A stretch of 64,000 nt of DNA from assembly GCA_043814315.1 (NCBI GenBank), contig JBDRKE010000010.1, positions 66,896 to 130,895 on the forward strand, given 5' to 3'. The notes beneath the pieces are model-generated. The model ran no database searches, was not told the origin of the DNA, and saw nothing but the letters and a program-made list of their open reading frames with translations. Positions 1,638 through 59,734 of the stretch are shown here, piece after piece. Made by a program: the position numbers and the translations under genes. The first letter of the stretch is position 1. The number at the start of each line of letters is the position of its first letter. The DNA comes from Candidatus Omnitrophota bacterium. GTDB taxonomy: Bacteria > Omnitrophota > Gorgyraeia > Gygaellales > Profunditerraquicolaceae.

Positions 1638-2927
1638 ATGGCGAAGAAATTATGGGGAGGTAGATTCAGTAAAAAGGCTCATCCCCTGACGGAAGAGTTT
1701 ACAAAATCCATTTCGTTTGATTACAAACTGTTACATTATGATATTGCAGGGTCTCTGGCGCACGTAGGTATCCTGAAAAGCGCGGGAATCATTTCAGCTG
1801 TGGAGGCTGCAAAGATTTCCCAGGGGCTTAAGTCCATCAAGTTCGACTCTAGGCTTGCGGATTATCAAGAGGATGTCCATACTTTCATTCAGAACCAATT
1901 GCATAGGAGAATCGGGAAACTGGCGTTGAAATTACACACAGCACGCTCAAGAAATGATCAGGTCGTCTTTTCCACGAAAATGTATTGCAAGGATAACCTT
2001 AAAAAGCTAATACAGGAGATCGATGGTTTTAGCAGCGCTTTAGGAACTCAGGTGAAGAAGCAAGCTCAGCTTATTCTCCCCGGGTTTACCCATTTGCAGC
2101 ATGCTCAGCCGGTTTACCTGAAGGACTATCTGAATGCTTACGCGTTGATGCTTAACCGGGACAAAAAAAGACTGGAGCTCATCCAAAAGAATGAGAAAGC
2201 GACATTAGGAGCCGGTGCCCTTGCCGGTACACCTATTGCCGCTTTAAAATACGCTAAGTTCGCTACGGCCAATTCATTGGATGCCGTAAGCAATAGAGAT
2301 TTTGTCTTGGAAATCATCAGCGCCTTGTCTATCCTAGCCATGCATTTATCAAGGTTGGCTGAAGATTTGATTATTTGGTCCACCAAGGAATTTGACTTCG
2401 TGGAGATTGACGAGGCTTTTTGCACAGGCAGTTCTCTGATGCCACAGAAGAAAAATCCTGATGTGCTGGAGTTGGTGAGAGGCTATGCAGGAAGGCTTTA
2501 TGGTAATCTGGTAAGTGTTCTAACGATGATGAAGGGGTTACCGCTGACTTATAACAGAGATATGCAATTGGATAAGGAACCTTTGTTTGATTCATTTGAA
2601 ATCGTTTCCAGGGAATTAAAAGTATTAACCGGGCTCATCGAGACGCTTAAATTCAATGAGAAGAAAATAAAAGAACACTTAAAGGATGAGTCTTTATATG
2701 CCACTGATTTAGTGTATTATCTTGTCGATAGAAAGATTCCCTTTAAAGAGGCGCATACGGCTATCGGCAAATTAGTGAAATATTCTCTGGATCATGGAAT
2801 CCAGATCAAAGACATGCCGGAAAGTTTATTGAACAAGTTTTCGAATAAAATTGTTAAAAAAGAAATAATAAAATTATTCGATCCGTTAGTTTCTGTCAGG
2901 TCGAAAAAGTCAATTAAGAGGAAATAA
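1638..2927 (+). CDS. argH: argininosuccinate lyase
   Basis: 429 aa. N-terminus LWGGRF, the lyase-family signature GSSLMPQKKNPD, and adjacency to argG. Confidence 0.93.
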   Translation: MAKKLWGGRFSKKAHPLTEEFTKSISFDYKLLHYDIAGSLAHVGILKSAGIISAVEAAKISQGLKSIKFDSRLADYQEDVHTFIQNQLHRRIGKLALKLHTARSRNDQVVFSTKMYCKDNLKKLIQEIDGFSSALGTQVKKQAQLILPGFTHLQHAQPVYLKDYLNAYALMLNRDKKRLELIQKNEKATLGAGALAGTPIAALKYAKFATANSLDAVSNRDFVLEIISALSILAMHLSRLAEDLIIWSTKEFDFVEIDEAFCTGSSLMPQKKNPDVLELVRGYAGRLYGNLVSVLTMMKGLPLTYNRDMQLDKEPLFDSFEIVSRELKVLTGLIETLKFNEKKIKEHLKDESLYATDLVYYLVDRKIPFKEAHTAIGKLVKYSLDHGIQIKDMPESLLNKFSNKIVKKEIIKLFDPLVSVRSKKSIKRK

Positions 2928-2959
2928 GTAGCGGGTGGCTTGGACTGATGAGTATAAAA

Positions 2960-3192
2960 ATGCACCTGGCGAGGTGCGAGCGAATGGAGCTTTTAGCAAG
3001 AGGAGCTTGAGCATTTGAGGGAATCTCGAGGTCAACGCGAAGCGTTGGCAATCTCGGGACGGCTGTGGGTGTCTGAGCGACGAGCGAGAGCGCGAGGAGC
3101 GAGTTCCGCAGACGCCGAAAATGCGAAAGAACTCTTGCGTCCTGAGCGAAGCGAAGGAAAAGCGACCTGAGCGAGCAGCTTGGCAGGTGCAT
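2960..3192. repeat. 233-bp GC/purine-rich intergenic element bounded by a short inverted repeat
   Basis: Left end atgcacctg (2960..2968) is the reverse complement of right end caggtgcat (3184..3192). The interior is full of gagcgaagcgaagg / gagcgacgagcgag motifs related to the cores at 15996..16024 and 18648..18690. Confidence 0.6.
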
Positions 3193-3221: not shown

Positions 3222-4499
3222 ATGCACGACTTTAAATATAAAAACAATCAGCTTTATTGCGAACAGGTTAAAGTCGAGGATTTAGCCAGGAAATTCGGCA
3301 CGCCTCTTTACGTCTACAGTTACCGTACTTTGATAGACCATTTCCTTAAACTGCAACATGCTTTTAAGAGCATAAATCCCCTGATCTGTTTCTCCGCAAA
3401 ATCCAATTCCAATCTGGCTATCCTGAAAGCCCTGGTGGATAAGGGGGCGGGCCTGGATATCGTTTCGGGGGGTGAGCTTTACAGGGCGCTTCGCGTGGGT
3501 TGCCCGCCCGAAAGAATCGTCTATGCTTCCGTCGGGAAAACCGAGCGCGAGATAGAAGAGGCTATCCGCCGAAGGATCCTTTTCTTTAATGTAGAAAGCA
3601 CAGCGGAATTGGAAAATATCAACCGTATAGCCAGAAGACTCAAACGGATTACGCGCCTGGCCATACGCATCAACCCGGATGTTGAGCCAAAAACCCACAG
3701 GTATATTACCACGGGAAAATTGACCAATAAATTCGGCATAGATTTCAGAAGCGCCTATCAGATTTTAATGGTGCGCCAAGCCCTCTCGCATGTGAAAATA
3801 TCCGGTTTGCATATCCACATCGGCTCTCAGATAACAGAAAGTGCTCCTTATGTTGCCGCTATGACCAAAATGGCAGCGTTTATTGAAAAACTGAGGAAGA
3901 AAGGAATAGGCCTTGAGTATCTTAATATCGGGGGCGGCCTGGGTATTGTCTATAATCACGAAACTCCGCAAACAGCCGTCCACTTTGCCGGTAAGGTCTT
4001 GCCTTTGCTTAAAAGGACAGGTTTAAAGATTATCTTAGAGCCAGGCAGATTCATTGTCGGCAATGCCGGTATCCTGGTTACAAAAGTGTTGTATCTTAAA
4101 TCGAGCCCTAGAAAGAAATTTGTCATTGTCGATGCGGGAATGAATGACTTGATCCGGCCTGCTTTGTATAACGCCTATCATCAGATTCTGCCCTTACGCA
4201 ATACGCAATACGCAATACGCAATACGCAGAAAGTCGATATAGTGGGCCCGATATGCGAAAGTGGCGATTTCTTTGCCAAAGAAAGGCCATTGCCTCAAGT
4301 CAAAGAAGGCCAGTATCTGGCAGTCATGAGTGCGGGCGCTTACGGTTTTAGCATGGCCTCTAATTATAATTCGCGAAAGAGGCCGCAGGAAATCATGGTC
4401 TTAAAGAATAAGTCCTTTGTCATAAGAAAAAGAGAGAACGAAAAAGATTTGGTTTGTAACGAAGTCATCCCGTCTTTTCTGTTTAAGGATACAGTATGA
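3222..4499 (+). CDS. lysA: diaminopimelate decarboxylase
   Basis: 425 aa. Conserved blocks GTPLYVY, FSAKSNSN and GPICESGD, within a lysine-operon context. Confidence 0.9.
   Translation: MHDFKYKNNQLYCEQVKVEDLARKFGTPLYVYSYRTLIDHFLKLQHAFKSINPLICFSAKSNSNLAILKALVDKGAGLDIVSGGELYRALRVGCPPERIVYASVGKTEREIEEAIRRRILFFNVESTAELENINRIARRLKRITRLAIRINPDVEPKTHRYITTGKLTNKFGIDFRSAYQILMVRQALSHVKISGLHIHIGSQITESAPYVAAMTKMAAFIEKLRKKGIGLEYLNIGGGLGIVYNHETPQTAVHFAGKVLPLLKRTGLKIILEPGRFIVGNAGILVTKVLYLKSSPRKKFVIVDAGMNDLIRPALYNAYHQILPLRNTQYAIRNTQKVDIVGPICESGDFFAKERPLPQVKEGQYLAVMSAGAYGFSMASNYNSRKRPQEIMVLKNKSFVIRKRENEKDLVCNEVIPSFLFKDTV
4196..4228 (+). repeat. heptanucleotide tandem repeat (acgcaat, about 4.7 copies) inside lysA
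   Basis: Read directly: acgcaat x4 followed by acgca. It is translated in frame as RNTQYAIRNTQ, just upstream of the conserved VDIVGPICESGD block. Confidence 0.9.
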
Positions 4500-5335
4500 A
4501 AAAAATAGAGTTTACCAAGATGGTCGCTTCCGGGAATGATTTCGTTGTTGCTGAGAAAAAACAACTATCCGCTATCCGCTATCCGCTATCCGCTATAGCT
4601 AATCAGATATGCAATAGGAAGTATGGTATAGGCGCTGACGGGTTGCTTATTCTTGAGAAAACAAAGGCAGCGGATATCAGGATGCGCGTGTTTAACGCCG
4701 ATGGTTCAGAAGCCGAGATGTGCGGGAATGGGGCAAGGTGCGTCGCCCTGTGGTTGAGTTCAAAGTTCCTGCCTGCCCGGCAGGCAGGCAAAGTTCATGG
4801 TTTAGAGTATAAAATCCAAACAAAAGCCGGCATCATTAAAGCCCAAGTCAATGGCGCATTAATAAGAATAAAGCTGACTGACCCCGCCGCTATAAAATTA
4901 AACGTACCCATCAGGATAAACAAGAAAATGCTGCACGTTAATTTTGTCAACACGGGGGTTCCTCATGCCGTGATATTTGTGGAGGGGTTGGATAAAATAG
5001 AAGTTGTAAGTTTGGGCAGGCAGGTGCGTTTCCATAAGGCGTTCTCGCCCGCAGGGGCCAATGTGGATTTTGTGGAAGCCTTAAATGATCATACTCTCGG
5101 ATTGAGAACATATGAGAGGGGTGTTGAGGATGAAACTCTGGCCTGCGGCACAGGAGCGGTTGCCTCGGCTTTAGCATACGTTATGCGCTACGCGCGAAAC
5201 GCCAAACAAATAAGAGTGCATACCCAGGGCAAGGAGATATTAAAAGTCTATTTTGAGAGAACAGGCCATAAATTAAAGAATGTTTGGTTAGAAGGAAAAA
5301 CGAAGGTTATTTGCAAAGGAGCGTATTATGTTTAA
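4496..5335 (+). CDS. dapF: diaminopimelate epimerase
   Basis: 279 aa. Contains SGNDFVV and the catalytic-Cys contexts MCGNGARC and ACGTGA. Confidence 0.9.
   Translation: MKKIEFTKMVASGNDFVVAEKKQLSAIRYPLSAIANQICNRKYGIGADGLLILEKTKAADIRMRVFNADGSEAEMCGNGARCVALWLSSKFLPARQAGKVHGLEYKIQTKAGIIKAQVNGALIRIKLTDPAAIKLNVPIRINKKMLHVNFVNTGVPHAVIFVEGLDKIEVVSLGRQVRFHKAFSPAGANVDFVEALNDHTLGLRTYERGVEDETLACGTGAVASALAYVMRYARNAKQIRVHTQGKEILKVYFERTGHKLKNVWLEGKTKVICKGAYYV
4565..4596 (+). repeat. heptanucleotide tandem repeat (ctatccg, about 4.5 copies) inside dapF
   Basis: Read directly: ctatccg x4 followed by ctat. It is translated in frame as LSAIRYPLSAI. Confidence 0.9.
4768..4788. repeat. 21-nt palindrome cctgcctgcc-c-ggcaggcagg inside dapF
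   Basis: The 10-bp arms are identical to the intergenic perfect palindrome at 10562..10581. It is flanked by the direct repeat caaagttc (4761..4768 and 4789..4796) and encodes part of FLPARQAGK. Confidence 0.85.
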
Positions 5336-15874: not shown

Positions 15875-18520
15875 ATGGGTAAATCACAAATCCCAATTTC
15901 CAAATCCCAAACAAATCCAAAATTCAATGCTTCGACTGCGCTTGCCATTGACACCGAGGCGGCCCTTCGTTTCGTTTCACTCGCTGTGGGTCGTCCCGAG
16001 CGAAGTCGAGGGACGAAGCCGAGGTGCCAAATCCAAAAAATTCAAATTGGCAGATTACTTGTTGTTTTTTTTGTGCTTGTATTTGCTTCGAACTACGAAC
16101 TTCGAACTCCGTACTTTGCTTATGCCCAGGATCCCAAAGAGGAAGAGGCACTCTTCGTTGCAAAGAAAGCCTTTGATGATGGTTTCTATGATGTCAGTCA
16201 GAACTTATTAGAGCGATTCCTCATTCAATACCCGCGTTCTTCAAAGACAGCGGAAATTCATCTATTGATGGGGCGTTCTTTTTTTTACCAAAATAGATTC
16301 TTGGATGCGCTTTCCAAATTTGAAGAACTTTTGGGCCAGCCCCAGGCTAAAAACCTTAAAGATGCCCTTTTTTACTGGATAGCCGAAGTCCACTTCAAGG
16401 GCAATAGTTTCAATAAGGCGGCCAGTTTTTACAAAAAGATTATTGATGAATTCCCGTCTTCTTCCTATTTAGGCGCTTCCTATTATTCATTGGCGTGGTG
16501 TTACTTCCAGGAAAGAAAATTTGAAGAGGCCCTCGCTTATTTCAAGATCATCGAAGAAAGGTACCTTCAAGAATCCTCTTTTCAAGATGCACCTTTAAAG
16601 ATCATCGAGTGCCTTTACAATTTAAAAGATTATGAGGGACTCAAAAAAAAGGTGAGGTCTTACTTGAATCTTTATCCCAAGAGCGCAGAGCAATCGCCTT
16701 ACCCCTATTTTTATTTGGCTGAAGCTGATTATTACCTCGGTAATTTTCAAGAAGCGATCGAAGAATATTCTTCGATTCTTAAGAGCAGCCTTGATCCCAA
16801 GGCGCAGGCGCTCTCGAAGATGGGTATGGCATGGTCTTATCTTAAATTGAAAAAATACAAAGAGGCAGAAAGCGCATTTTTGGATATCAAAGAAGGACAC
16901 CTTGAGAAAAGAAGCCAGGAGATCTTGCGGCTGGGTGAGGCTATCCTCATGGTTGAGACGAACCGCGTCAACGAAGCCAAAGGCATTTATGAGCAACTGC
17001 TGAGCCGTTCGGACGATCCCCTTGTTTTAATTCAGGCCTATCTGGGGAAAGCAGACGCCCTTTATAACCTTGCAGAATATCATGAGGCGATCAGCGTATA
17101 TAAAGAGGCCTTGAGTAAGTTTAGCCCCGGGACCGTTCCTCAGGAGATCATGGATAAAATACACTATAGCCTTAGCTGGACCTATTTAAAGCAGGGGGAA
17201 TTCAAGGAGGCCATCAAAGAGTTTCAGAGAATCGTCAAAGAAACAGACGATAAAATCGTTAAAGTCAGCGCGCTTTGTCAAATAGGTGATGCGTATCAGG
17301 ATTCCGGAGATTATACCGAAGCCCAGGAAGCCTATTCCGTCATATTAAAGGATTACCCCGATAATTTCTATAGCGATTATGTGCAATACCAGTTAGGCCT
17401 GACGCTGCTTAAAGCCTCTAACTATGAAGGGGCTATTATGAGCTTTCAGGCCCTCAAAAGAAATTTTCCCCAATCCAAACTTTTAGACGACGCCACGTAC
17501 GCGCTTGGGTTAGCCTATTTCCAAAGACAGGATTATAATTCCAGCCGTGTCCTCTTTGAAAGTTTTGAGCAGGAATTCAAGGATAGTCCACTTAAGCCCC
17601 AGGCCCTTTATCTTCTTGGCACCTGTTTCTATAACCTGCGTGAATTTGCCAAGGCGATTGAGGTGTTTAAGAATGTCATCAGATTGTATAGCCAGGATAC
17701 CGATTTGGTCCAGAAGGCAGAATATGAAATAGCCGATTGTTATGACCAGATGGGAGACGAAAAAGAGGCGGTGAACCGATTCAATATCTTGCGTTCCAAA
17801 TATCCTGATTCGAGCCTGACCCCCGAAGTCATGTGGTGGCTGGGAGAATACTATTACAAACATAACGAATTGGAGTTGGCGCGCCGGTACTTTTCGACCC
17901 TCATCAGAGACTTTCCCAAAAGCCCGCTGGTCGCGGATTCCTATTATGCCGTAGGGACAAGTTTTGAAGAGGAATCCAGGCATGAGGAGGCAATAGAGAA
18001 TTTTCGGAAAGTCATGGATTTGGGCAAAACCGACCTTAATGGCCAGGCTGCTATCGCTATCGCAGACATATACGTCAAACAGGAAAACCTGGAATCAGCC
18101 ATCAAGGCTTATCAGGAGATTAGCAGAGAATATCCGAATCTGACCCATTTGATTTATCCCAAGATGGCCCAGCTTTACTACAAAACTGCAGATTTCAGTC
18201 AAGCTTTAAATTTTTATCGCAAGAGCCTTGATGTGGTATCGGTAAGAGAAATGGGGAATATCCATTTTAAAATAGCCGAAGTGTTGCAAGCACAGGGAAC
18301 TCTGGATGAGGCTATAGAGGAATACCTGAAAGTCGCCTACCTTTATCCAGAGAATGACTTGCTCGCCATTAAGGCCCTTTTAAGAGTAGCTCAGATCTAT
18401 GAAGATAAAGAGAATTTTAAAGAGGCCGCGCGTATCTATGAAAAAATAGTTTCAATAGACGCTGAAGAAGCCAAGTATGCACAAGAGAGGATAGACTGGA
18501 TAAAGGTACACGTAAAATAA
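15875..18520 (+). CDS. large TPR-repeat protein (probably exported); N-terminus uncertain
   Basis: About 800 aa of tandem TPR-like repeats (the YbgF/CpoB-style pattern A..Y..A....g.y.eA). The first ~70 codons of the ORF read through an intergenic repeat element. No canonical start lies just before the hydrophobic LLVVFFVLVFAS segment. Confidence 0.7.
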   Translation: MGKSQIPISKSQTNPKFNASTALAIDTEAALRFVSLAVGRPERSRGTKPRCQIQKIQIGRLLVVFFVLVFASNYELRTPYFAYAQDPKEEEALFVAKKAFDDGFYDVSQNLLERFLIQYPRSSKTAEIHLLMGRSFFYQNRFLDALSKFEELLGQPQAKNLKDALFYWIAEVHFKGNSFNKAASFYKKIIDEFPSSSYLGASYYSLAWCYFQERKFEEALAYFKIIEERYLQESSFQDAPLKIIECLYNLKDYEGLKKKVRSYLNLYPKSAEQSPYPYFYLAEADYYLGNFQEAIEEYSSILKSSLDPKAQALSKMGMAWSYLKLKKYKEAESAFLDIKEGHLEKRSQEILRLGEAILMVETNRVNEAKGIYEQLLSRSDDPLVLIQAYLGKADALYNLAEYHEAISVYKEALSKFSPGTVPQEIMDKIHYSLSWTYLKQGEFKEAIKEFQRIVKETDDKIVKVSALCQIGDAYQDSGDYTEAQEAYSVILKDYPDNFYSDYVQYQLGLTLLKASNYEGAIMSFQALKRNFPQSKLLDDATYALGLAYFQRQDYNSSRVLFESFEQEFKDSPLKPQALYLLGTCFYNLREFAKAIEVFKNVIRLYSQDTDLVQKAEYEIADCYDQMGDEKEAVNRFNILRSKYPDSSLTPEVMWWLGEYYYKHNELELARRYFSTLIRDFPKSPLVADSYYAVGTSFEEESRHEEAIENFRKVMDLGKTDLNGQAAIAIADIYVKQENLESAIKAYQEISREYPNLTHLIYPKMAQLYYKTADFSQALNFYRKSLDVVSVREMGNIHFKIAEVLQAQGTLDEAIEEYLKVAYLYPENDLLAIKALLRVAQIYEDKENFKEAARIYEKIVSIDAEEAKYAQERIDWIKVHVK
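15881..16050. repeat. modular repeat element (aaatcccaaa arm, gagcgaagtcgagggacgaag core)
   Basis: A/C-rich arm at 15881..15927, a GC-rich core with cgaag-periodic inverted segments at 15960..16024, and a second short A/C arm at 16027..16050. Confidence 0.75.
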
Positions 18521-24159: not shown

Positions 24160-24705
24160 ATGGTACAAAATCTCATACTTGGCCGCATAAAAGGCTTAAG
24201 ATTCAAAGGAGAGGGAATTTTTCTAATGATATTTGTCTTGACGGTAGGAGGCTTAATCGGGAGAGATTCATTGGCTGCCTCCGCAACTTATGAGGAGATT
24301 CAGGAATTAGAGAAAGATGAAAACATTTCTCCTCCTGCGCGTATCGAAAGGCCCGTTGTCGAATATCGGTCAGGACACTTAAAGGATCCTTTTCAGCGGT
24401 TCAGGAGCAGCAAAAGGACGCAAGGCCCGCAAGACGCCACAGAAGCTAAATCCGCTAAAAAGAAAAGACCCCTTCCGCCTTTGGAGATTCAAGGGGTAGT
24501 CTGGGGAGGGATTTTTCCTCAAGCCGTCGTTGATAATAAAGTTGTAAAAGTTGGAGATACCATAAAGCTTGAGCAGGCGCAAGAAGAGATAAGAATTATC
24601 AGTATCGATAAAGAAGGGATAACGGTATCTTTCGATGAGCAAAATTATAAATTGTCAGCTCCGGCAGGAGGCGACACTTCTTTCAAAATACCTTCAGGAG
24701 GATAA
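24160..24705 (+). CDS. PilP-like small periplasmic protein
   Basis: Signal/TM segment and a C-terminal beta-domain (LEIQGVVWGG..AVVDNKVVKVGD...IISIDKEGITVSF), positioned immediately before the secretin gene. It parallels ORF 46748..47137. Confidence 0.4.
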   Translation: MVQNLILGRIKGLRFKGEGIFLMIFVLTVGGLIGRDSLAASATYEEIQELEKDENISPPARIERPVVEYRSGHLKDPFQRFRSSKRTQGPQDATEAKSAKKKRPLPPLEIQGVVWGGIFPQAVVDNKVVKVGDTIKLEQAQEEIRIISIDKEGITVSFDEQNYKLSAPAGGDTSFKIPSGG

Positions 24706-24706
24706 A

Positions 24707-26284
24707 ATGAAAAAAATCTTTAGGCTGGGTGTATCTTTTTTTATGGTGATTTTTTACCTGTTCCTTCCTAAGCTGAATGCTTATCCAGAGGCCCCTTTGC
24801 TGGAGGCGGATAGTCCTGCGGAAATCTCCATGGATTTCAAGGACGCCAACCTCAAGGATGTCTTAAAAGTATTTTCTATCCAGTCCGGCATGAATTTTAT
24901 CTCTTCTGAAGCCGTGCAAGACAGGAAGATAACCCTCTATCTGGATAAGGTCCCTATCGAACAGGCTATGGATAAACTGTTTAAAGCCAACAATCTTTCC
25001 TATGAATATTACAGGGATTCCAATATATTTATCGTTAAGGAATGGGGAAAATTACAGATTGAAACCCAAACCCGCGTATTTTATCTTAAGCACGCGACGG
25101 TTTCCACCTCTTCTTTAAAACAGGAGATGCACGATATTCTGGTCAGTCAAGATAGCGGTGGAAATGCTGGTGCAGGAAAATGGAAGCAGGAAGAGGCTGC
25201 CGGCATTTCGACGGTCATCAAAAAGTTACTTTCTGACGCAGGCTCCATGATTGAAGATTATCGCACCAACAGTCTTATTATTACGGATACACCCCAACGG
25301 TTGCAGGTTATTGCCGGGGTCATTGCTTCCCTGGATGTGCCTGTTCCGCAGGTCCTCTTGGAAGTGGAGATGTTAGATGTCAGTAAGAATAGCGTGGATA
25401 AATTAGGATTGAAATGGCCTACGACATTAGCGCAGTTGACCGTACCCGGATCCCGTATGACTTCGTTTCCTTTCTCGGGAAATAAAGGAACCTCAGGAAA
25501 TAGCTATACTATTGATCCCAATGAGGGTGCTTTCGGAGGTCCGGGCGACGGATGGGATTTTCCAGCGTGGGGGGCGTCTCATTTCGGTCCGTCAATTCTC
25601 ACTATTATAGGCACAACCCTGACCCTGGATTTTTTAAGAACCCAAACCGACACCAAATTTTTGGCTCGGCCCCGGATCCTGACCTTGAATAATGAAACCG
25701 CGGAGATCCGCATTGCTACGAATGAATCCATCGGCGTAACCACTACCACTACTTCTGCCGGAGGGAACACCGGTTCATCCACAGCCGAGGCAGAAAGAGT
25801 AGAAACCGGGGTGATTTTAAGAGTAACGCCTCAGATCAATCTGGAGACCGGCGAAATCACCATGTTTATTTACCCTAAAGTTTCAGAGGCCGTGCAAGGA
25901 AGCACGATAACCAGCGGAGGTCAGACAAGCAGATTCAGGGATCCGGAAGTGCGCAGCACCAAGTCTTTGGTAAAGGTTAAGGATGGGGAAACGATTGTTA
26001 TCGGCGGGCTTCTGCGCGATGAATTCAGCCAGGTTACGGAAAAATTACCCATTTTAGGGGATCTCCCCTTTATAGGGGCCTTATTCAGGCATAAGGGAGG
26101 CGATAGCGATAAGAATAAACAACGCGAACTGCTTGTTTTTATTACGCCTCATATCATGAAAGATTCGGAAATAAAACTTGTTCAAAGGGAGCAAGTAAAG
26201 TTGTCTGGCAGGGAGCAGAGTACGATTTCAGCACTGAGTCGAGAGGTGGCTATCAATTCCAGCATGAACCGTTTTGATCAATAA
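24707..26284 (+). CDS. secretin (PilQ/GspD family)
   Basis: Signal peptide, an N0-like domain (ISMDFKDANLKDVLKVFS...) and a C-terminal secretin domain (RPRILTLNNETAEI..., VKDGETIVIGGL, LPILGDLPFIGALFR). Confidence 0.9.
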   Translation: MKKIFRLGVSFFMVIFYLFLPKLNAYPEAPLLEADSPAEISMDFKDANLKDVLKVFSIQSGMNFISSEAVQDRKITLYLDKVPIEQAMDKLFKANNLSYEYYRDSNIFIVKEWGKLQIETQTRVFYLKHATVSTSSLKQEMHDILVSQDSGGNAGAGKWKQEEAAGISTVIKKLLSDAGSMIEDYRTNSLIITDTPQRLQVIAGVIASLDVPVPQVLLEVEMLDVSKNSVDKLGLKWPTTLAQLTVPGSRMTSFPFSGNKGTSGNSYTIDPNEGAFGGPGDGWDFPAWGASHFGPSILTIIGTTLTLDFLRTQTDTKFLARPRILTLNNETAEIRIATNESIGVTTTTTSAGGNTGSSTAEAERVETGVILRVTPQINLETGEITMFIYPKVSEAVQGSTITSGGQTSRFRDPEVRSTKSLVKVKDGETIVIGGLLRDEFSQVTEKLPILGDLPFIGALFRHKGGDSDKNKQRELLVFITPHIMKDSEIKLVQREQVKLSGREQSTISALSREVAINSSMNRFDQ

Positions 26285-26286
26285 CC

Positions 26287-28008
26287 ATGCCGAAAGACAG
26301 ATATTTAAGATTAGGGGAACTCCTCATTAAAGAGGGGCTGATCAATACCGGTCAGTTAGAAAAAGCCATCAGCGCCCAAAGGCACGAGGGTGGCCGATTA
26401 GGAGAGGTTTTGGTCAGGTTGGGGTTTATCAGGGAGGACCAGGTCGTTGCTGTTCTGGGCAAGCAACTTAATATTCCTTATTTTTCTTTGGGCACGGGGA
26501 TGTTAAAACCCGCCATGGATCAGGGGCTGGAACGCCTCATCTCCGAGGATTTTGCCCTTAAGAATTCAGTCCTTCCCTTATCGCGCACCTTAAGGTCTAT
26601 TACCGTGGCGATGTCCGACCCCCTGGACCTTATCCTGGTTGATAATTTGAGAAAATTGACGGGGTGCGAAATCAATCCTGTCATTGCCACCAAATCCGAT
26701 ATCGCTAAAGCCGTCGAGGCCTTTTATGGGAAGTCCGCTATGCTGAAAGAGGCGGTGGAGGCCAGTTATGACCTTTCCAAAGTCGAAGCGCCATCGGGTG
26801 ACGCGGAAACCGCTGACCAGGAGCTCTCACTCGATAAATTAATTGCCCGCGCTGAAGAGGCTCCGGTGGTGAAATTGGTAGATTTGATCGTGCGTCAGGC
26901 GATTGATGAAAGGGCTTCGGATATCCATATCGAGCCGTTCAAAGACAGGATTTCGCTTCGGTATCGAGTCGACGGCAAGCTCTATGAGATTCCTCCTCCG
27001 GCCAAACACCTGCACATGCCGATTATATCGCGCGTCAAAATTTTGTCAAAATTAGATATTGCGGAGAAGCGGCTTCCGCAAGACGGTGCCTTCTTAGTCA
27101 GGATAAACGAAAAACCGATAGATATAAGAGTTTCCACCATACCCACCATCTATGGGGAGAAGGTCGTTATGAGAATACTGGATAGGAGCGCCGTAGTTTT
27201 GGATATTAATGTTTTAGGGTTCGGCCCCAAACAACTGGAAGACATGCGCCGCTCGATCAATGCTCCTTACGGACTGGTATTCTTAACCGGGCCTACGGGT
27301 AGCGGGAAAACCACGACCCTTTACGCCATATTAAACGAAATAAAAAATCCCACAAAAAACATAGTGACTGTCGAGGATCCGGTCGAATACAAATTAGAAG
27401 GCATTAATCAAGTCCAGGTCAAGCCTGAGATCGGGCTTACCTTTGCTGCGGCACTGCGCAGTTTCTTAAGGCAGGACCCGGATATCATGTTAGTCGGCGA
27501 GGTAAGGGATTTAGAAACGGCAGAGATTTGCATCCGTTCTGCTTTAACCGGACACCTCGTGCTAAGCACACTGCACACTAATGATGCGCCTTCAGCCGTG
27601 AACCGCCTCATGGATATCGGCATTGAGCCTTACATGCTGGCGCCATCTTTACTGTGCGTAGTGGGGCAGCGTCTCTTAAGGAAACTTTGCCCTGAATGCA
27701 AAGAGGCTTATGAGCCCGCCCAGGAAGAGCGTGACAGCGTAAAGTTAAAAGCAGATTTGATCTACCGGCCGAAAGGCTGTACGAAGTGCAACAATACGGG
27801 GTTTAACGGCCGGGTCTGTATCGCCGAGGTTATGATAGTCAACCAGGAGATTCAGGACTTGATTAACCAGAAGGCGCCTTTTCAGAAAACAAGGGCTGCC
27901 GCCAAGGCGCACGGGATGGAGACGCTTTATGAATCGGCCATAAAGAAGGTCGAACAGGGGGTTACCTCCCTTGAAGAGGCCCTTTCAGTTACGCTGGGTG
28001 CTGATTAA
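26287..28008 (+). CDS. GspE/PilB family type II/IV secretion ATPase
   Basis: 573 aa. T2SSE_N-like N-terminus, Walker A motif GPTGSGKTTT, Walker B/Asp box, His box, and a tetracysteine motif (CPECK...CTKCNNTG). Confidence 0.93.
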   Translation: MPKDRYLRLGELLIKEGLINTGQLEKAISAQRHEGGRLGEVLVRLGFIREDQVVAVLGKQLNIPYFSLGTGMLKPAMDQGLERLISEDFALKNSVLPLSRTLRSITVAMSDPLDLILVDNLRKLTGCEINPVIATKSDIAKAVEAFYGKSAMLKEAVEASYDLSKVEAPSGDAETADQELSLDKLIARAEEAPVVKLVDLIVRQAIDERASDIHIEPFKDRISLRYRVDGKLYEIPPPAKHLHMPIISRVKILSKLDIAEKRLPQDGAFLVRINEKPIDIRVSTIPTIYGEKVVMRILDRSAVVLDINVLGFGPKQLEDMRRSINAPYGLVFLTGPTGSGKTTTLYAILNEIKNPTKNIVTVEDPVEYKLEGINQVQVKPEIGLTFAAALRSFLRQDPDIMLVGEVRDLETAEICIRSALTGHLVLSTLHTNDAPSAVNRLMDIGIEPYMLAPSLLCVVGQRLLRKLCPECKEAYEPAQEERDSVKLKADLIYRPKGCTKCNNTGFNGRVCIAEVMIVNQEIQDLINQKAPFQKTRAAAKAHGMETLYESAIKKVEQGVTSLEEALSVTLGAD

Positions 28009-29237
28009 TGCCAAAATTTTTCTACATTGCCAGGAATAAGCTCGGCAAGAAAGATACCGGAGCCGAAGAGGCTGCCACACAGGAAGAAGCCATTCTTAGG
28101 TTGCAGTCTAGGGATCTGGTGGTCATCAGCATCCTACCTGCCTTTAAAGAATCCGGGGTCAACCAGGAAGTCATATCAAAGGCGAAGTTTAAACCAAAGC
28201 ACTTCCGTATTTCAGGGGAAGACCTGGTTCTTTTCTGCAGGCAGTTAGCCACGCTTTTAGGCGCAGGCGTAACGATCTTGAAGAGTCTGGATATTATTTC
28301 GCAACAGGTATCCAGCCGCAGGCTTTATGAGGTTATCAAAGAGTTACAGAAAAATATGGAAGCAGGATTAAGTTTTCATGAAGCTATATCAAAGCACCGT
28401 TTGATATTTTCTGAATTGTGGGTTAATCTTGTGGAAAGCGGGGAGGCCTCCGGAAATTTAGCCATGGTTTTGAGCCGCCTGGCCAGCTACTTAGAGAGAA
28501 ATGCGGCGTTTAAGAAAAAGATTGTTTCTGCTTTGATTTACCCTACCATCTTGATGCTGGTCGGGACAGGCGCACTTTTGTTCTTGACCGTTAAGATTAT
28601 ACCTACCTTTGCCGTCTTATTTCAGGGTTTCGATGTAAAGATGCCCTTTTTGACATCCGTGCTTATAGCCGTAAGCGGCTTTATGAGAAAATACCTGCTC
28701 ACTATTTTTGTCTTAGGGATTATCGGGTTCTTCATTTTTAAAAATTATATTTCTACAAAGCAGGGCCGAAGAGCCTTTGAGAAAATTTTGTTCAATCTTC
28801 CGGTCTTCGGAGAATTTTTTCGTGTGCTGATTGTGGAGCGCTTCACTTCTGAAATGGCCACTCTCGTTGAAAGTGGCGTGCCCATATTGTATTCTTTGGA
28901 AATCACGGAGCATAGCGTCGGAAATCTGACGCTGGGGGAGATCATCGGCAGAATCAAAGACGATGTGCGCGAAGGCAAACCTTTGTCCCAGCCGCTGGAC
29001 AGAAGCGGATTCTTCGAGCCTATGGCCGTACAAATGGTGACGATCGGAGAAGAAATCGGAGAATTATCCAGTATGTTTAAGAAATTGAATTCTTTTTATC
29101 AGGAATACGTGGATACGTTTTTGACCCGGTTTACGGTCATGTTTGAGCCGATAATGCTTATTTTTATGGGTGTCGTGATCGGCATGATGGTGGTGGGGAT
29201 GTTTTTACCTATATTCCAGCTTGTCCAGATACGCTAG
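28008..29237 (+). CDS. GspF/PilC family platform protein
   Basis: 409 aa with two T2SSF repeats and three TM segments. The start overlaps the ATPase stop. Confidence 0.92.
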   Translation: MPKFFYIARNKLGKKDTGAEEAATQEEAILRLQSRDLVVISILPAFKESGVNQEVISKAKFKPKHFRISGEDLVLFCRQLATLLGAGVTILKSLDIISQQVSSRRLYEVIKELQKNMEAGLSFHEAISKHRLIFSELWVNLVESGEASGNLAMVLSRLASYLERNAAFKKKIVSALIYPTILMLVGTGALLFLTVKIIPTFAVLFQGFDVKMPFLTSVLIAVSGFMRKYLLTIFVLGIIGFFIFKNYISTKQGRRAFEKILFNLPVFGEFFRVLIVERFTSEMATLVESGVPILYSLEITEHSVGNLTLGEIIGRIKDDVREGKPLSQPLDRSGFFEPMAVQMVTIGEEIGELSSMFKKLNSFYQEYVDTFLTRFTVMFEPIMLIFMGVVIGMMVVGMFLPIFQLVQIR

Positions 29238-29257
29238 GTTCCATACGCATAATTTAT

Positions 29258-29285
29258 TTGACTTGATTGTTTTTTGTGATATTCT
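29258..29285 (+). promoter_or_regulatory. sigma70-like promoter candidate (extended -10) for the pilin operon
   Basis: TTGACT (29258..29263), a 16-nt spacer ending in TGa, then TATTCT (29280..29285). This predicts a leader of roughly 275 nt before the pilin ATG. Confidence 0.45.
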
Positions 29286-29401
29286 AAATCAAGAGAGAGG
29301 AGGTGGTAGGTAGAGTAAATTTTTTGTTATTTCGAAAATGGTGTTATTGAAAAGTCGAAGGGCAGGTTTATCCCTCGCACCTGACAAGCCATAGATGGGT
29401 G

Positions 29402-29557
29402 CTCGGGATAATTTGCTGACCCGTAAGAGCGGGCAAATTAATTCGTTAACCCGTTATAGCTGGCGAATAATTTACTGAGCGGTTATAGCGGGGAAATTAA
29501 TCCGCTGACTAGTTATAGCAGACGGATAATTTGCTGACCCGTAATAGCGGGCAAATT
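29402..29557 (+). repeat. tandem array of five ~30-nt hairpin units directly upstream of a pilin SD
   Basis: Each unit has the form aatt-X5-...gtta/tagc...-X5'-aatt, and the outer stems differ between units (ttgc/gcaa, ttcg/cgaa, tccg/cgga). The first and last units (29406.. and 29524..) are identical except for one base. The array ends 1 nt before the aggagg SD. Confidence 0.85.
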
Positions 29558-29568
29558 AGGAGGAAAAG

Positions 29569-29964
29569 ATGAAAAGAGGTTTTACGTTACTAGAACTGAT
29601 CATTGTCATCATCGTCGTCGGTATATTAGCTACCCTTGGTTTTGTCCAGTATACAAGCATGATTGAAAAAGGCCGAAAAGCAGAGGCCAGAAGCATTTTG
29701 GGGACGTTACGTCAGTTAGAGGTTGTGCGGTATCAGGAAACAGGAGCTTATAGTAATTTGGCTGGCTTAAGTACGGGTGTACCTGACGGCGCATGTGCAG
29801 CCACACATTATTTTTTCTACGCCTGCGCCGCTGGAACAGGCACCTGCACAGCTACTAGATGTATAGGTGTTGTAGGTAAACAGCCAGGCGTTCCTGCCGC
29901 AGATGTCTATACCATTACGTTGAGTGTTGACGGAAATTTCAACGGAACAGGCAATTGGCAGTAA
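29569..29964 (+). CDS. type IV pilin-like protein (paralog 1)
   Basis: MKRG|FTLLELIIVIIVVGILA prepilin motif. The C-terminal domain has four Cys. Confidence 0.85.
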   Translation: MKRGFTLLELIIVIIVVGILATLGFVQYTSMIEKGRKAEARSILGTLRQLEVVRYQETGAYSNLAGLSTGVPDGACAATHYFFYACAAGTGTCTATRCIGVVGKQPGVPAADVYTITLSVDGNFNGTGNWQ

Positions 29965-29988
29965 GGATATAAAAAAGACAGCATTATC

Positions 29989-30399
29989 TTGGAGAGAAAG
30001 AAGAAGAAAAAAGGCTTTACAATGTTAGAGCTAGTTATAGTCATTGTGGTCGTGGCTATACTAGTGAGTTTAGGGCTTGTTCAGTTTACTTCCGTGATGG
30101 AAAAGGGCCGTAAAGCAGAAGCCAGAAGCATCCTGGGGACGCTGCGTCAGTTAGAGATTTCGCGATACGAAGAGATGCTCACGTATAGTAATTTAGCAGG
30201 ATTAGGCATAGCTGTACCTGACGGCGCATGTGCAGCCACGCATTATTTTTTCTACGCCTGCGCCGCTGGAACAGGCACCTGCACGGCTACTAGATGTATA
30301 GGTGCTGTAGGTAAACAGCCAGGCGTTCCTGCCGCAGATGTTTATACCATCACGCTGGATGTTAACGGAAATTTCTCGGGAACAGGCAATTGGCAGTAA
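29989..30399 (+). CDS. type IV pilin-like protein (paralog 2)
   Basis: TTG start with leader MERKKKKKG|FTMLELVIVIVVVAILV. The last ~186 nt are nearly identical to paralog 1. Confidence 0.85.
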   Translation: MERKKKKKGFTMLELVIVIVVVAILVSLGLVQFTSVMEKGRKAEARSILGTLRQLEISRYEEMLTYSNLAGLGIAVPDGACAATHYFFYACAAGTGTCTATRCIGAVGKQPGVPAADVYTITLDVNGNFSGTGNWQ

Positions 30400-30417
30400 G
30401 GACAGGAGAAAAAGCCG

Positions 30418-30831
30418 ATGAAGAAAACTGGCGTTACTTTGCTGGAAATGGTGATTACCGTTATGCTCATCGGTATTTTAGGTACACTGGGCTTTATCCA
30501 ATACGGGAATTACCGAGAAGAGGCTTTGGGCAAAGAGGCGCGCGCGAATTTGAGATTGATTATAGCTGCGCAAAGGATCTACAAGATAAAAACAAGCGCT
30601 TACTTCCCTGCTGCCGGAGGTACCGAGAGTAACACAGGCACCATTAATGATAATCTGAAAGTGCTTTTGTCCACTTTAGCGGGTTCTGGCCGGACATGGG
30701 ATTATCTGGTGACCTCTTCAGGCGGTTCAACCTGCGTTCAGGCAACGAGATTTAATGGGCCTGCAAAAACCTGGAGATTCCGCAATAATGAACCTGGCGG
30801 AGATCCTCTTGAAAATGCCACTTGTCCTTAA
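30418..30831 (+). CDS. type IV pilin / pseudopilin-like protein
   Basis: MKKTG|VTLLEMVITVMLIGILG. The C-terminus is similar to ORF 18..419. Confidence 0.8.
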   Translation: MKKTGVTLLEMVITVMLIGILGTLGFIQYGNYREEALGKEARANLRLIIAAQRIYKIKTSAYFPAAGGTESNTGTINDNLKVLLSTLAGSGRTWDYLVTSSGGSTCVQATRFNGPAKTWRFRNNEPGGDPLENATCP

Positions 30832-30836
30832 CCTTA

Positions 30837-31268
30837 ATGCCTATGTGTGAAAAAAGTATAATGGCCTTTACCCCGCACTTCATAAAGCCTCGTCTTAAAT
30901 CCTGCACCCCTCTTGTGCGGAATTTAGGACGATGTGCGGGGTTTACCTTGATTGAAATCTTAGTTTCTACGGTGCTCATTTCTTTGGTTTTAGTTGGGTT
31001 AGGGAATCTTTTTCTGGGCGGAAAAAAATGGATGCAGCACCGCCGCTACCAAATCACTGCCGGCCAAATAGCCAAGGTTTTTTTAGACCCTTTGCAGATG
31101 GATGTCCGTCAGGACCAATGGGGAAGTAACTGTTTAAGCAGCGGCATAGGTTGCCCAGGCACCCAAAATGTGGATGGCATTACCTACACTCCTGTTTATA
31201 ATATTTCGGCTGTTGGGAATTTGCGTCGCGTCCAGTTGACTATTAGCTGGAGCGAGCCCACCTCTTAG
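30837..31268 (+). CDS. minor pseudopilin-like protein with an unusually long leader
   Basis: Contains ..LGRCAG|FTLIEILVSTVLISLVLVGL. The start is uncertain (TTG 30822, ATG 30837 or ATG 30861), which gives a 27-40-aa leader. Confidence 0.6.
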   Translation: MPMCEKSIMAFTPHFIKPRLKSCTPLVRNLGRCAGFTLIEILVSTVLISLVLVGLGNLFLGGKKWMQHRRYQITAGQIAKVFLDPLQMDVRQDQWGSNCLSSGIGCPGTQNVDGITYTPVYNISAVGNLRRVQLTISWSEPTS

Positions 31269-31862
31269 ATGCCCGAAAATAAAAAAATTCCCGGAGTCAC
31301 TCTTATAGAATTAATTATCGCTATTGTCTTGATTTCATTCATTGTCTTAGGGATTGCGAATATTGATACCTTCTTCCATTTTCATGTCCTGAATGCGGAT
31401 CGCCGCATTAAGATTCAATATGAAACCTCCATTTCCTTAGAACACATGACGAAGGAGATGGTAAGGGCCATAGGAGATACCAATAAGCCTCCTGTGACCT
31501 TGCTTTTGCCTTCTGGTTCCATCTACCGCGGCATTAGGGTCTGGGTGGATGAAAACCAAAACGGAATTCAGGATACTTACCCCACGGACCGTGAAATCGG
31601 TTATCTCTACCAACAGGGCTCGAGTACGATTCAGTATTATAACCCCTGCCGAGGCCCGAGCTGCAACTGGGCAGGAAGCCTGCTGAATGAGACCCTATCT
31701 CGACAGATTGCCGAGTGTACCTTTACCTGGTCTGCGAGCACTGGAAACTTCGTTGATGTCAACATCACCTCGCGCCACAATACCTCCGTGGCCTCTTCTG
31801 TGGATAATCCCGAAATGAACATGATCGCCCGTATTCAAATGCCTGCCGTATCTACCCATTGA
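31269..31862 (+). CDS. minor pseudopilin-like protein (GspJ/PilW-like size)
   Basis: MPENKKIPG|VTLIELIIAIVLISFIVLGI. 197 aa. Confidence 0.7.
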   Translation: MPENKKIPGVTLIELIIAIVLISFIVLGIANIDTFFHFHVLNADRRIKIQYETSISLEHMTKEMVRAIGDTNKPPVTLLLPSGSIYRGIRVWVDENQNGIQDTYPTDREIGYLYQQGSSTIQYYNPCRGPSCNWAGSLLNETLSRQIAECTFTWSASTGNFVDVNITSRHNTSVASSVDNPEMNMIARIQMPAVSTH

Positions 31863-32111: not shown

Positions 32112-32187
32112 GGGGCAGTAGCTCAGCTGGGAGAGCGTCGCGTTCGCATCGCGAAGGTCGGGAGTTCGATCCTCCTCTGCTCCACCA
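32112..32187 (+). tRNA. tRNA-Ala (anticodon CGC), CCA encoded
   Basis: The cloverleaf was folded by hand. Acceptor stem ggggcag/ctgctcc includes the G3:U70 Ala identity pair. The anticodon loop ttCGCat and T-loop ttcgatc are present, with discriminator A followed by CCA. Confidence 0.93.
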
Positions 32188-32420
32188 AAATTTTCCAGCC
32201 TCTCGCCCTTTGGGCTCGGGATAATTCGTCGACCGATAAGGTATAACGGGCGAATTAACAAGGAAAATTTTGGTGGCACTTGAACGAGCGCGGGCGAGGC
32301 AGCCCCTCGGCCGTTGGCCTCGGGATAATTCACCGATATGCAATAGCGGGTGAATTAACAAGCGAGGCAGCGAGTGAAAGTGCATACTTCCTTGATTTTT
32401 GATAAGGAAAAATTTGGTGG
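32188..32420 (+). repeat. two ~105-nt repeat units downstream of tRNA-Ala, each with a ctcgggataatt...aattaacaag hairpin
   Basis: The hairpins at 32213..32262 (aattcg/cgaatt stem) and 32318..32366 (aattcacc/ggtgaatt stem) share the ctcgggataatt lead-in seen at 29402. In addition, ggaaaa(a)tttggtgg at 32262 and 32406 is an inverted copy of the tRNA 3' end caccaaaattttcc. Confidence 0.8.
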
Positions 32421-33547: not shown

Positions 33548-33686
33548 CAAATCCCAAATCCAAAATCCCAAATCCCAAACAAATCCCAAACACCAATTTC
33601 CAATATTTCAAACTTTAATGTTTCGGTCATTGGTCATTGGGGCATTGGTGCTTATTTGGAATTTGGTGCTTGGTACTTGGAATTTA
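33548..33686. repeat. modular hairpin element (aaatcccaaa.. / ..ttggaatttggtg arms)
   Basis: A/C-rich arm at 33548..33614 and complementary G/T-rich arm at 33626..33686. The right arm lies within the reading frame of the downstream gene. Confidence 0.8.
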
Positions 33687-46747: not shown

Positions 46748-47137
46748 ATGCGTATGTTTAAACCGAAAATAGGAATCAGTATAGCGATTATTTCGTTCTT
46801 CGTTCTTCGTTTTTCGTTCTTCGTTTACAGCCAGGAGAAGAACACCGATGAAACTAAAAGTGCGCGTAATCCCTTTATGCCTTTGGTCACAGCCGATGGC
46901 CGCCTGATCAACCTCGACAAAGATAAGACAAGGGCGGATTTGGTGGTGGAGGGTACGATGTTTGACAAGCATGGCCGTTCCTACGCGATCGTGAACGGTC
47001 TGGTCGTAGAAGTCGCAGATACAATAGACGGTTTCAGAGTCTTGAAGGTCGAACAGGGAAAGGTCACTTTTATGAAGGATGGGCAAACCAGGGTCGTAGA
47101 AGTAAAGAGTGAAGAGAAAAAGGAGGAGGAAAGGTGA
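46748..47137 (+). CDS. PilP-like small periplasmic protein
   Basis: Signal/TM segment and a beta-domain (LVVEGTMFDKHGRSYAIVNGLVVEVADTIDGFRVLKVEQGKVTF), directly upstream of and overlapping the secretin gene. Confidence 0.45.
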   Translation: MRMFKPKIGISIAIISFFVLRFSFFVYSQEKNTDETKSARNPFMPLVTADGRLINLDKDKTRADLVVEGTMFDKHGRSYAIVNGLVVEVADTIDGFRVLKVEQGKVTFMKDGQTRVVEVKSEEKKEEER

Positions 47138-54596: not shown

Positions 54597-54708
54597 GGTT
54601 AAATCCCTATTTAAAAATCCCAAACAAAACATTTGGATTTGGGATTTGTTTGGTAGTATTGGGATTTTGGATTTGTTTGGGATTTGGGATTTGGAAATTG
54701 GGATTTTC
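54597..54708. repeat. modular hairpin element (aaatccc.. / tttgggattt.. arms)
   Basis: Short A/C arm at 54601..54630 and a longer G/T arm at 54631..54708 that contains gggatttgtttggtagtattgggatt (54641..54666). Confidence 0.8.
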
Positions 54709-57895: not shown

Positions 57896-58022
57896 ATAGT
57901 CGCTTCTTTCCATCCGTTATCCTTTCGTTATCGTCTTTAGATTCAAAAATCTCAAAGTGAAGGGGGGTATATTTTAAAATTCAAAATTAAAAATCCAAAA
58001 TTCAAAAATAAAGGAGAAATAA

Positions 58023-59567: not shown

Positions 59568-59734
59568 TAAATCCAAAATCCAAATATTACCAAATCCAAA
59601 ATAAATCCCAATCTCTCCCGCATAAGCGGGATCCCGCTAGACGTTACAAGTTGCGCGGGAAAAATCCCAAATAGTTTTGGATTTTGGATTTGGGATTTGT
59701 TTGGTAGTATCGGTATTAGTGGGATTTGGGGTTT
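59568..59734. repeat. modular hairpin element (aaatccaaaa / ttttggattt arms, gcgggatcccgc core)
   Basis: Left arm aaatccaaaatccaaatattaccaaatccaaaataaatccc. The core is cccgcataagcgggatcccgc...gcgcgggaaaaa, with the palindrome at 59626..59637. The right arm is agttttggattttggatttgggatttgtttggtagtatcggtatt. Confidence 0.85.

Follow-up and report, generated by a model that had tools for sequence, protein, structure and literature searches.

We analysed a window of 64,000 nucleotides from a Candidatus Omnitrophota bacterium (contig JBDRKE010000010.1 of GenBank assembly GCA_043814315.1), which contains a tandem array of five short hairpins directly upstream of a pilin gene. The genes around the array form a type IV pilus cluster. 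The features of this locus are given below, with genes taken from the list of open reading frames (ORFs) and SD denoting the Shine-Dalgarno sequence.

24635-26284: secretin gene, ORF list
26287-28008: gene of a PilB-type ATPase, ORF list
28008-29237: pilC, ORF list
29258-29285, + strand: predicted sigma-70-like promoter of the pilin genes, TTGACT-16 nt-TATTCT with TG before the -10; the sole promoter-like site in 28900-30100
29293-29315, + strand: purine-rich box resembling an SD, with which the leader begins (GAGAGAGGAGGTGGTAGGTAGAG; GAGGAGGTGG), read from the sequence
29370-29409, + strand: U0, a G+C-rich 'type 2' partner hairpin, CCCUCG-stem...stem-CUCGGGA with a UC/UC internal loop; inverted repeat, -16.5 kcal/mol
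29409-29440, + strand: U1, canonical SD-type unit with a TTTGC/GCAAA stem; covariance model 45.9 bits, -10.4 kcal/mol
29439-29469, + strand: U2, degenerate 31-nt unit with a TTCG/CGAA stem; 20.3 bits, -5.6 kcal/mol
29468-29499, + strand: U3, unit with one A·G stem mismatch; 41.8 bits, -4.8 kcal/mol
29498-29528, + strand: U4, degenerate 31-nt unit with a TCCG/CGGA stem; 21.6 bits, -12.1 kcal/mol
29527-29558, + strand: U5, canonical SD-type unit against the SD, with a TTTGC/GCAAA stem; 51 bits
29558-29571, + strand: SD AGGAGG (29558-29563) and start codon (29569-29571) of the first pilin gene, read from the sequence and orthologous in relatives
29569-29964, + strand: first pilin gene, 131 amino acids, N-terminal GFTLLELIIV, ORF list
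29569-31862: five pilin-like genes, ORF list

The array consists of five head-to-tail hairpin units of about 30 nt each (29409-29558) between the promoter and the pilin SD. Tandem Repeats Finder placed it at 29408-29558 with periods of 29 (5.1 copies) and 59 (2.6 copies). A separate repeat search of the window returned the identical 59-nt register, and the two-unit blocks of this length are mutually 76% identical. In the register of the wider family described below, adjoining units overlap by their outer 'TA'. Each of U1-U5 folds singly as a hairpin, with predicted energies from -4.8 to -12.1 kcal/mol. The outer stems differ between U1/U5, U2 and U4 yet remain complementary, and U3 has its single mismatch. 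U1 and U5 are one base apart, with G at 29427 in U1 and T at the matching position of U5. Measured against the consensus of the family, U2 and U4 are degenerate. The final A of U5 (29558) doubles as the first A of the SD, and U0 lies directly 5' of U1, with an apical part similar to the loop of the units. All five units are in direct orientation, scoring 20-51 bits on the + strand vs 12-20 bits on the - strand, and their covariance-model scores (E 1.5e-10 to 0.025) exceed chance. The five units, their complementary outer stems, the near-identity of the first and the last and the closeness of the last to AGGAGG had all been described in the initial annotation, and repeat finding, folding and the covariance model bear that description out.

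The first hairpin lies about 85 nt after the predicted -10, which ends at 29285, with U0 beginning at 29370. From the promoter to the start codon, a scan of 28900-30100 showed no other promoter-like site and no terminator-like site. No credible small ORF passes through the array, and the 29-30-nt period is not a multiple of three. We infer that the array is transcribed from the conserved promoter within a leader of about 280 nt, which agrees with the leader position that had been assigned to it. The purine-rich box at the start of this predicted leader may be a STAB-SD-like or standby element.

We compared this arrangement with orthologous loci. The window PilC has a 100% identical counterpart in a Candidatus Omnitrophota metagenome-assembled genome, and hundreds of PilC homologues, 67-86% identical, belong to Omnitrophota wherever a name is given; exact-sequence protein look-ups of the window PilC and pilin returned no record. 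Orthologues of the first pilin have a match to PF07963 (N_methyl) that is marked weak. The pilC-pilin spacers of loci L013-L019, L020-L024 and L121 (PilC 75-86% identical) were read, and the covariance model was run on these and on the spacers of L048, L063 and L078 (PilC range 67-86%). At least 12 distinct orthologous spacers of related Omnitrophota contain no hairpin and retain promoter and SD, and the model gave zero matches in any of the spacers searched. These spacers measure 121-225 nt vs 331 nt in the window. All of the relatives' spacers keep the promoter (TTGAC..TGnTAnnCT), which each orthologous locus read conserves directly behind pilC, followed by a purine-rich box just downstream (AAGGGGGTGGGAG, GGCGGTGAGAGGG and similar) at a position equivalent to window 29293-29315, an A/T run and the SD. 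Since the orthologous spacers are shorter and free of units, the array is a lineage-specific insertion of about 190 nt exactly 5' of an orthologous SD. The initial annotation had taken the array for a device of the pilin operon. Its hairpins, their covariation and their leader position stand; the device is not supported, as both the array and a single unit are absent from every orthologous pilC-pilin spacer examined, an absence that the initial annotation itself had counted towards refutation.

Other rearrangements are seen in these loci. The first pilin gene of the window is tandemly duplicated (29569-29964 and 29989-30399), and the C-terminal halves of the two copies are nearly identical. 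The relatives have a single 130-amino-acid pilin where the window has the duplicated pair, so the pilin locus underwent more than one local duplication. L022 contains an ORF for an 82-amino-acid GIY-YIG domain protein between pilB and pilC (2752-3000), which the otherwise identical L023 is without. In L024 (4231-4455), about 100 nt that include a GUGACCCCGUAACUUCGGGGUC hairpin are inserted upstream of the pilin promoter, with duplicated TTGACA-containing sequence on either side.

Within the window the covariance model found only two copies besides U1-U5, giving seven copies at two loci in 64 kb. These are the '+2 units' to which the initial annotation had alluded. Both were also found by a profile of the array units, and they are located about 3 kb from the array, downstream of a tRNA-Ala gene:

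32112-32187, + strand: tRNA-Ala(CGC), ARAGORN; Rfam tRNA, 62 bits
32182-32276, + strand: post-tRNA helix CCACCAAAATTTTCC/GGAAAATTTTGGTGG around a G+C hairpin (32199-32221) and unit X1 (32222-32257); X1 25.3 bits, helix from the predicted fold
32303-32357, + strand: G+C hairpin (32303-32325) and unit X2 (32326-32357), enclosed by GCACTT/AAGTGC; 50.6 bits, enclosing helix from the predicted fold

As with U0 in the pilin leader, X1 and X2 are each preceded by a G+C hairpin ending in CUCGGGA. The spacer after the tRNA gene (32182-32383) folds as nested three-way junctions, and its first helix (32182-32196 with 32262-32276) takes in the tRNA's own 3' CCACCA. X2 is bracketed by a 9-nt direct repeat, GCGAGGCAG (32294-32302 and 32362-32370). 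A single orthologous unit occurs between the tRNA-Ala gene and a radical-SAM gene in L013, L016-18, L020, L048, L063 and L068, extending to relatives whose PilC is only 67% identical; at this site no unit was found in L019 and L021. The post-tRNA helix CCACCAAAAUUUUCC/GGAAAAUUUUGGUGG closes a bare GACAA loop in L019 and L013, and a G+C hairpin plus unit in the window and L020.

We scanned metagenomes with the pattern TAATTNNNYGANNNNNNATAGCNNGNNAATTA, in which stem positions 6-8, 26 and 27 were left free, and built a covariance model (R1) of 32 positions and 9 base pairs. The scan matched 96 stretches. The covariance-model search gave 100 matches in 84 loci, 91 of them distinct when flanks are counted. 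The 32 nt of the unit form a hairpin whose 9-bp stem is A/U-closed and whose 14-nt loop is conserved (UAAUUyrcY-GAyanGnnAUAGCg-GGyrrAAUUA). Stem pairs 1-5 (UAAUU/AAUUA) are invariant and pair 8-25 is C-G. At 6-27, 60 copies have C-G and 23 have U-A; at 7-26, 40 have G-C and 36 have A-U. At 9-24, 41 copies have U·G, which would be a C·A mismatch on the opposite strand, and 29 have C-G. Among the 83 distinct cores that matched the scan pattern in the fetched loci, the three free pairs are all Watson-Crick in 61; 2000 shuffles gave 15 on average and never more than 27. Across alignments, 98% of stem cells are paired, with 57-60 double changes vs about 21 in shuffles, and pairing falls to 14-52% when the stem register is slid. 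One of the alignments used for the double changes had been filtered for pairing and the other fitted to the model, so the unfiltered test on 83 cores is the cleaner one. The compensatory variation first noticed among five units is thus borne out on about 90 distinct copies. The loop sequence fixes the orientation of a copy, since the model scores 45-51 bits in sense and about 20 bits in antisense.

At most sites the architecture is one G+C hairpin plus one unit; the pilin leader has U0 plus five units. The partner hairpin lies directly 5' of the unit and is of the type CACCGCGC-UUCG-GCGCGGUG or CCCUCG..CUCGGGA, with UUCG tetraloops or GNRNA-like loops. It too varies in a compensatory manner (CGCGC/GCGCG, CGCAC/GUGCG, CGUGC/GCACG, UGCAC/GUGCA), and closing helices such as GGCACUC/GAGUGCC make the pair of hairpins a nested three-way junction. 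Taken together, the stem covariation, the variants of the partner hairpin, the U·G pairs and the closing helices point to selection on RNA structure, and the five tandem hairpins of the pilin leader almost certainly fold as RNA.

No copy lies within an ORF, and the copies run in the same direction as the neighbouring genes, apart from a single loop-inverted case at an SD site (L120). Of the 91 distinct copies, 53 are within 400 nt of a same-strand tRNA and none is near solely an opposite-strand tRNA. Seven copies end 0-2 nt before the 5' end of a tRNA: tRNA-Leu(UAA) in four cases, tRNA-Gly(UCC) in two and tRNA-Pro in one. Twelve others end 0-1 nt before an SD, with an ORF following in 11 of the 12. 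The genes downstream are mutually unrelated and none is a pilin. From their translations they are putatively acetyl-CoA synthase, the acetolactate synthase small subunit, rpmE, clpP, a response regulator, an HU/IHF-like protein, a glycosyltransferase-like protein, yqeY, an unknown secreted protein and, twice, rho. The identity of rho was confirmed by homology, its close named homologues being from Omnitrophota (locus L111 is Omnitrophota), and rpmE has a PF01197 match in L122 and L123. U5 is identical to the unit before the glycosyltransferase-like gene in L091. The rho leaders of L109 and L111 and the HU/IHF-like leader of L087 are arranged like the pilin leader, with a CCCUCG..CUCGGGA hairpin, a unit and the SD, and the same hairpin (CCCTCG..CTCGGGA) directly precedes units in many tRNA spacers. 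Between the rho cassettes of L109 and L111, compensatory changes have occurred in the outer stem as well as in the inner one.

The stem also varies with context. A sub-type with an all-A/U lower stem, to which U1, U3 and U5 belong, accounts for 16 of the 19 SD- or tRNA-abutting copies vs 8 of the 72 internal copies (Fisher p = 2e-9). The SD-type copies showed no constant distance from promoter to cassette, so transcripts do not regularly begin with the cassette. Where checked, copies in other loci are irregularly spaced, at least 68 nt apart. A two-unit pattern run on 185,579 representative genomes matched only unrelated simple tandem repeats and no comparable back-to-back array.

Presence or absence of the cassette varies between orthologous sites other than those described above: in L122 and L123 rho overlaps coaE and there is no cassette, in contrast to L109 and L111. 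Nested insertions of the cassette are seen in the loops of other modules. Upstream of rpmE, the loop is reverse-complemented in L120 (167-198) relative to L041 (7266-7297) while stem and flanks are unflipped, which indicates either a flip between the inverted arms or insertion in either orientation. The GCGAGGCAG repeat that flanks X2 is also found next to copies elsewhere, which makes it more likely an architectural part than a target duplication. The only inverted repeats of the cassette are the arms of the stem.

Database searches did not assign the motif to a described family. At gathering thresholds, Rfam 15 recognized only tRNA in the window, and with E up to 10 the region 29200-29620 gave chance-level matches only. 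Four tRNA-spacer loci searched against Rfam contained tRNAs, a group I intron and one chance-level match only. The intron (RF00028, 107.6 bits; L108 697-915) interrupts an apparent tRNA-Tyr gene in an Omnitrophota-like tRNA cluster, and a 226-amino-acid ORF (98-778) lies just upstream, overlapping the 5' end of the intron. The scan pattern had zero matches in 2.9 million viral contigs. No description of the motif was found in the Omnitrophota literature searched, including the main Omnitrophota genomics paper.

Several classes of element were considered and rejected. The array is not a CRISPR array, since its units abut and share 2 nt, leaving no spacers between them. Intrinsic terminators and attenuators were set aside because the units end in AAUUA and no terminator-like site exists in 28900-30100. 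Inspection of the 14-nt loop by eye showed the nucleotides needed for a K-turn, a hammerhead core, preQ1-I, the T- or D-loops of tRNA or domain V of a group II intron to be misplaced.

The known repeats nearest in kind are BOX, REP/BIME and the Correia and ERIC elements. Repetitive extragenic palindromic (REP) sequences and their mosaic elements (BIME) are similar in being imperfect palindromes of 20-40 nt in transcribed extragenic spacers that may form clusters, and REPs can act as exonuclease barriers. The Omnitrophota unit is likewise a short imperfect palindrome in extragenic, co-oriented spacers. In contrast to the RAYT-associated REP/BIME, it has no GTAG/GGAG head, its units beginning with TAATT, and it clusters in direct orientation, as do all five units here, instead of alternating. 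It is also found 5' of the SD of the downstream gene, not 3' of the upstream gene, and at modest density. A stable structure upstream of an SD, as in ompA-type hairpins or STAB-SD elements, could block 5'-end-dependent decay. The pilin leader resembles these in that stable structure precedes the SD of what would be a highly expressed mRNA. They act at the very 5' end of the transcript, whereas the first pilin hairpin lies some 85 nt from the predicted -10 and the distance to an upstream promoter varies among other copies of the motif.

A parallel in architecture exists with the BOX elements (boxA-boxB(n)-boxC) of Streptococcus pneumoniae, modular intergenic repeats with a predicted RNA fold in which the internal hairpin may be absent or tandem and which are predicted to affect co-transcribed genes (PMC3049150). 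The Omnitrophota motif is similarly a dispersed modular repeat with an internal module of variable copy number, as shown by U0 plus five units here vs one unit elsewhere. This likeness is one of architecture, with no relationship in sequence expected; the phylum is different, and the Omnitrophota unit is much shorter (32 nt) with a strongly conserved loop. Moreover, descriptions of BOX elements include neither an association with tRNA spacers nor exact abutment to SDs or tRNA 5' ends, both of which characterize the Omnitrophota motif. The Correia elements of Neisseria are inserted repeats that alter the expression of adjacent genes via RNA structure or RNase cleavage (PMC2649163; summarized in PMC3049150). 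Correia and ERIC elements share with the motif their small size, insertion polymorphism and entry into mRNA leaders. They are 100-150 bp long with terminal inverted repeats and defined target duplications, whereas the Omnitrophota element is built of a 32-nt hairpin and its partner hairpin. Judged by its features, the motif belongs to none of the BOX, REP/BIME, Correia or ERIC families. What sets it apart is a 32-nt unit, a conserved 14-nt loop, an obligatory partner hairpin, the dominance of tRNA spacers and a near-zero distance to SDs and tRNA 5' ends.

The window contains other repeats and regularities. Arrays of the heptamer CAAATCC/AAATCCA are found at 1599-1622, 15881-15922, 33548-33603, 57976-58007 and 59569-59602, with inverse copies at 54631-54706 and 59675-59698. 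These arrays or their complement occupy many short spacers or the very beginnings of predicted ORFs, and the heptamer has the look of a second dispersed repeat at gene boundaries, C/A-rich and unstructured. Perfect or near-perfect heptamer repeats also occur within predicted ORFs (TACGCAA x4.9 at 4195-4228, CTATCCG x4.6 at 4565-4596, TTCGTTC x4.9 at 46792-46825), where a 7-nt period in coding sequence would be frameshift-prone. Co-orientation in the window (1-64000) is extreme, with 60 of 61 non-overlapping ORFs of at least 120 amino acids on the + strand.

The array is five copies of a dispersed, sense-strand, structure-conserved hairpin whose cassette is insertion-polymorphic and not specific to pilin genes. 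How it arose and what it does can be read in several ways. The probable explanation, in our view, is that a small structured-RNA repeat dispersed in Candidatus Omnitrophota, generic and not pilin-specific, was locally amplified in tandem. It is possible, but in our estimation rather unlikely, that the repeat is selfish or neutral palindromic mobile DNA, similar to MITEs (miniature inverted-repeat transposable elements) or REPs, which inserted where tolerated and reached five copies by replication slippage with no RNA role. The presence/absence patterns in the pilin leader, at the GACAA loop (L019 and L013 vs the window and L020) and at the coaE-rho junction (L122 and L123 vs L109 and L111) are MITE-like and would suit such an element, as would the nested insertions, the loop inversion between L120 and L041 at the same rpmE site, the direct repeat flanking X2, the degenerate U2 and U4 and the lack of the array in all relatives. 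A mobile DNA element without an RNA role would not be expected to show the orientation bias seen here, 53 to 0 in sense at tRNAs and 12 sense to 1 inverted at SDs, nor U·G pairs that are specific to one strand. The cassette is kept with compensatory changes at orthologous sites despite diverged spacers, and its stem sub-type varies with context. No transposase is associated with it, and GCGAGGCAG recurs beside other copies.

The pilin-centred explanation, in which a pilus-related factor binds the five loops of a dedicated riboregulator or protein-binding platform and controls translation or mRNA stability, now appears improbable. The location in a predicted leader with the last unit against the SD speaks for it, as do the conserved loops and covarying stems, and five copies would suit cooperative binding. 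It is largely refuted by the comparative data: every orthologous pilin leader is without the array, identical or nearly identical units precede rho, clpP, rpmE, the HU/IHF-like and glycosyltransferase-like genes, other genes and tRNAs across Omnitrophota, and none of the 12 other SD-abutting copies precedes a pilin. Control of pilin translation or stability is possible only as a generic property of the repeat. An action at the DNA level, as iterons, operators or a promoter with a would-be start at the G of AUAGCGGG in the loop, is very improbable. Direct repeats with a conserved core at a spacing of about 30 bp are what such elements would look like. The loop also has a likeness to promoters of single-subunit phage RNA polymerases such as T7 and SP6 (TAAT..GAC..TATAG). 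A phage-type promoter (TAATT..CTGAC..TATAG) was rejected on the grounds that the viral contigs yielded no match, that covariation extends to positions downstream of any such start and that pair 9-24 is often U·G. Iterons and operator arrays fit poorly with the covariation of pairs 6-27 and 7-26, the irregular spacing of units elsewhere and the strand coherence, and there is no sigma-70-like site inside the array; the protein-binding platform suggested by the initial annotation is unlikely at the DNA level, given the covariation, the U·G pairs and this strand coherence. An artefact of metagenome assembly, through collapse or expansion of a repeat, is hardly credible. U1 and U5 are one base apart and short tandem repeats are prone to mis-assembly, but the five units are mutually distinct, their register is regular and the flanks are colinear with relatives.

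On the reading as an amplified structured-RNA repeat, a cassette of U0 plus a unit would have inserted into the pilin leader immediately 5' of the SD, and the unit would then have been duplicated to five copies, probably as a 59-nt two-unit block. If the cassette acts at all, it would do so in cis and through RNA, as a structural module of a generic kind. Its most plausible role would be that of a barrier to decay, a processing boundary or an insulator that protects the downstream ribosome-binding site, for example from upstream structure, and five copies would reinforce this effect on an abundant pilin mRNA. The argument for an RNA role is based on how closely copies abut SDs and tRNA 5' ends, on the stem sub-type that varies with context and on the retention with compensatory change at orthologous sites. 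Several observations weigh against this reading. The array is absent from all close relatives and hence dispensable for pilin expression, and the degenerate U2 and U4 suggest relaxed constraint within it. Since no back-to-back array was found elsewhere, the amplification could be a neutral product of slippage. With the hairpin about 85 nt after the -10, a classic role as a 5'-terminal stabiliser would need prior processing; the transcription start and any processing are themselves predictions from the DNA. Predictions of SD accessibility were unstable: opening the 6-nt SD takes about 0.3-0.6 kcal/mol (wild type, U0+U5) vs 2.3-2.8 kcal/mol in two constructs without U1-U5, but truncated constructs are erratic at 4-10 kcal/mol. 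Finally, no transposase is linked to the spread of the cassette.

We also considered a more specific version, in which the cassette is a signal for a phylum-specific RNA-processing or translation-initiation factor that marks the 5' boundaries of functional RNAs (tRNA +1, SDs of selected highly expressed mRNAs), with the all-A/U sub-type tuned to this purpose and the array serving as a dosage device for pilin mRNA. We consider this unlikely. The pilus is implicated in host attachment. The cells of the uncultured phylum Omnitrophota are very small, and for many of them a host-dependent lifestyle is predicted (PMC10066038).

Thus, a riboswitch-like story for one pilin operon gives way to an unannotated, strongly covarying hairpin cassette of a phylum, and the motif is a candidate family ready for Rfam. 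If it is only a tolerated repeat, it would still be a useful marker and a caution for the annotation of leaders. A functional cassette would suggest that Omnitrophota define or protect the 5' boundaries of RNAs in a manner specific to the lineage.

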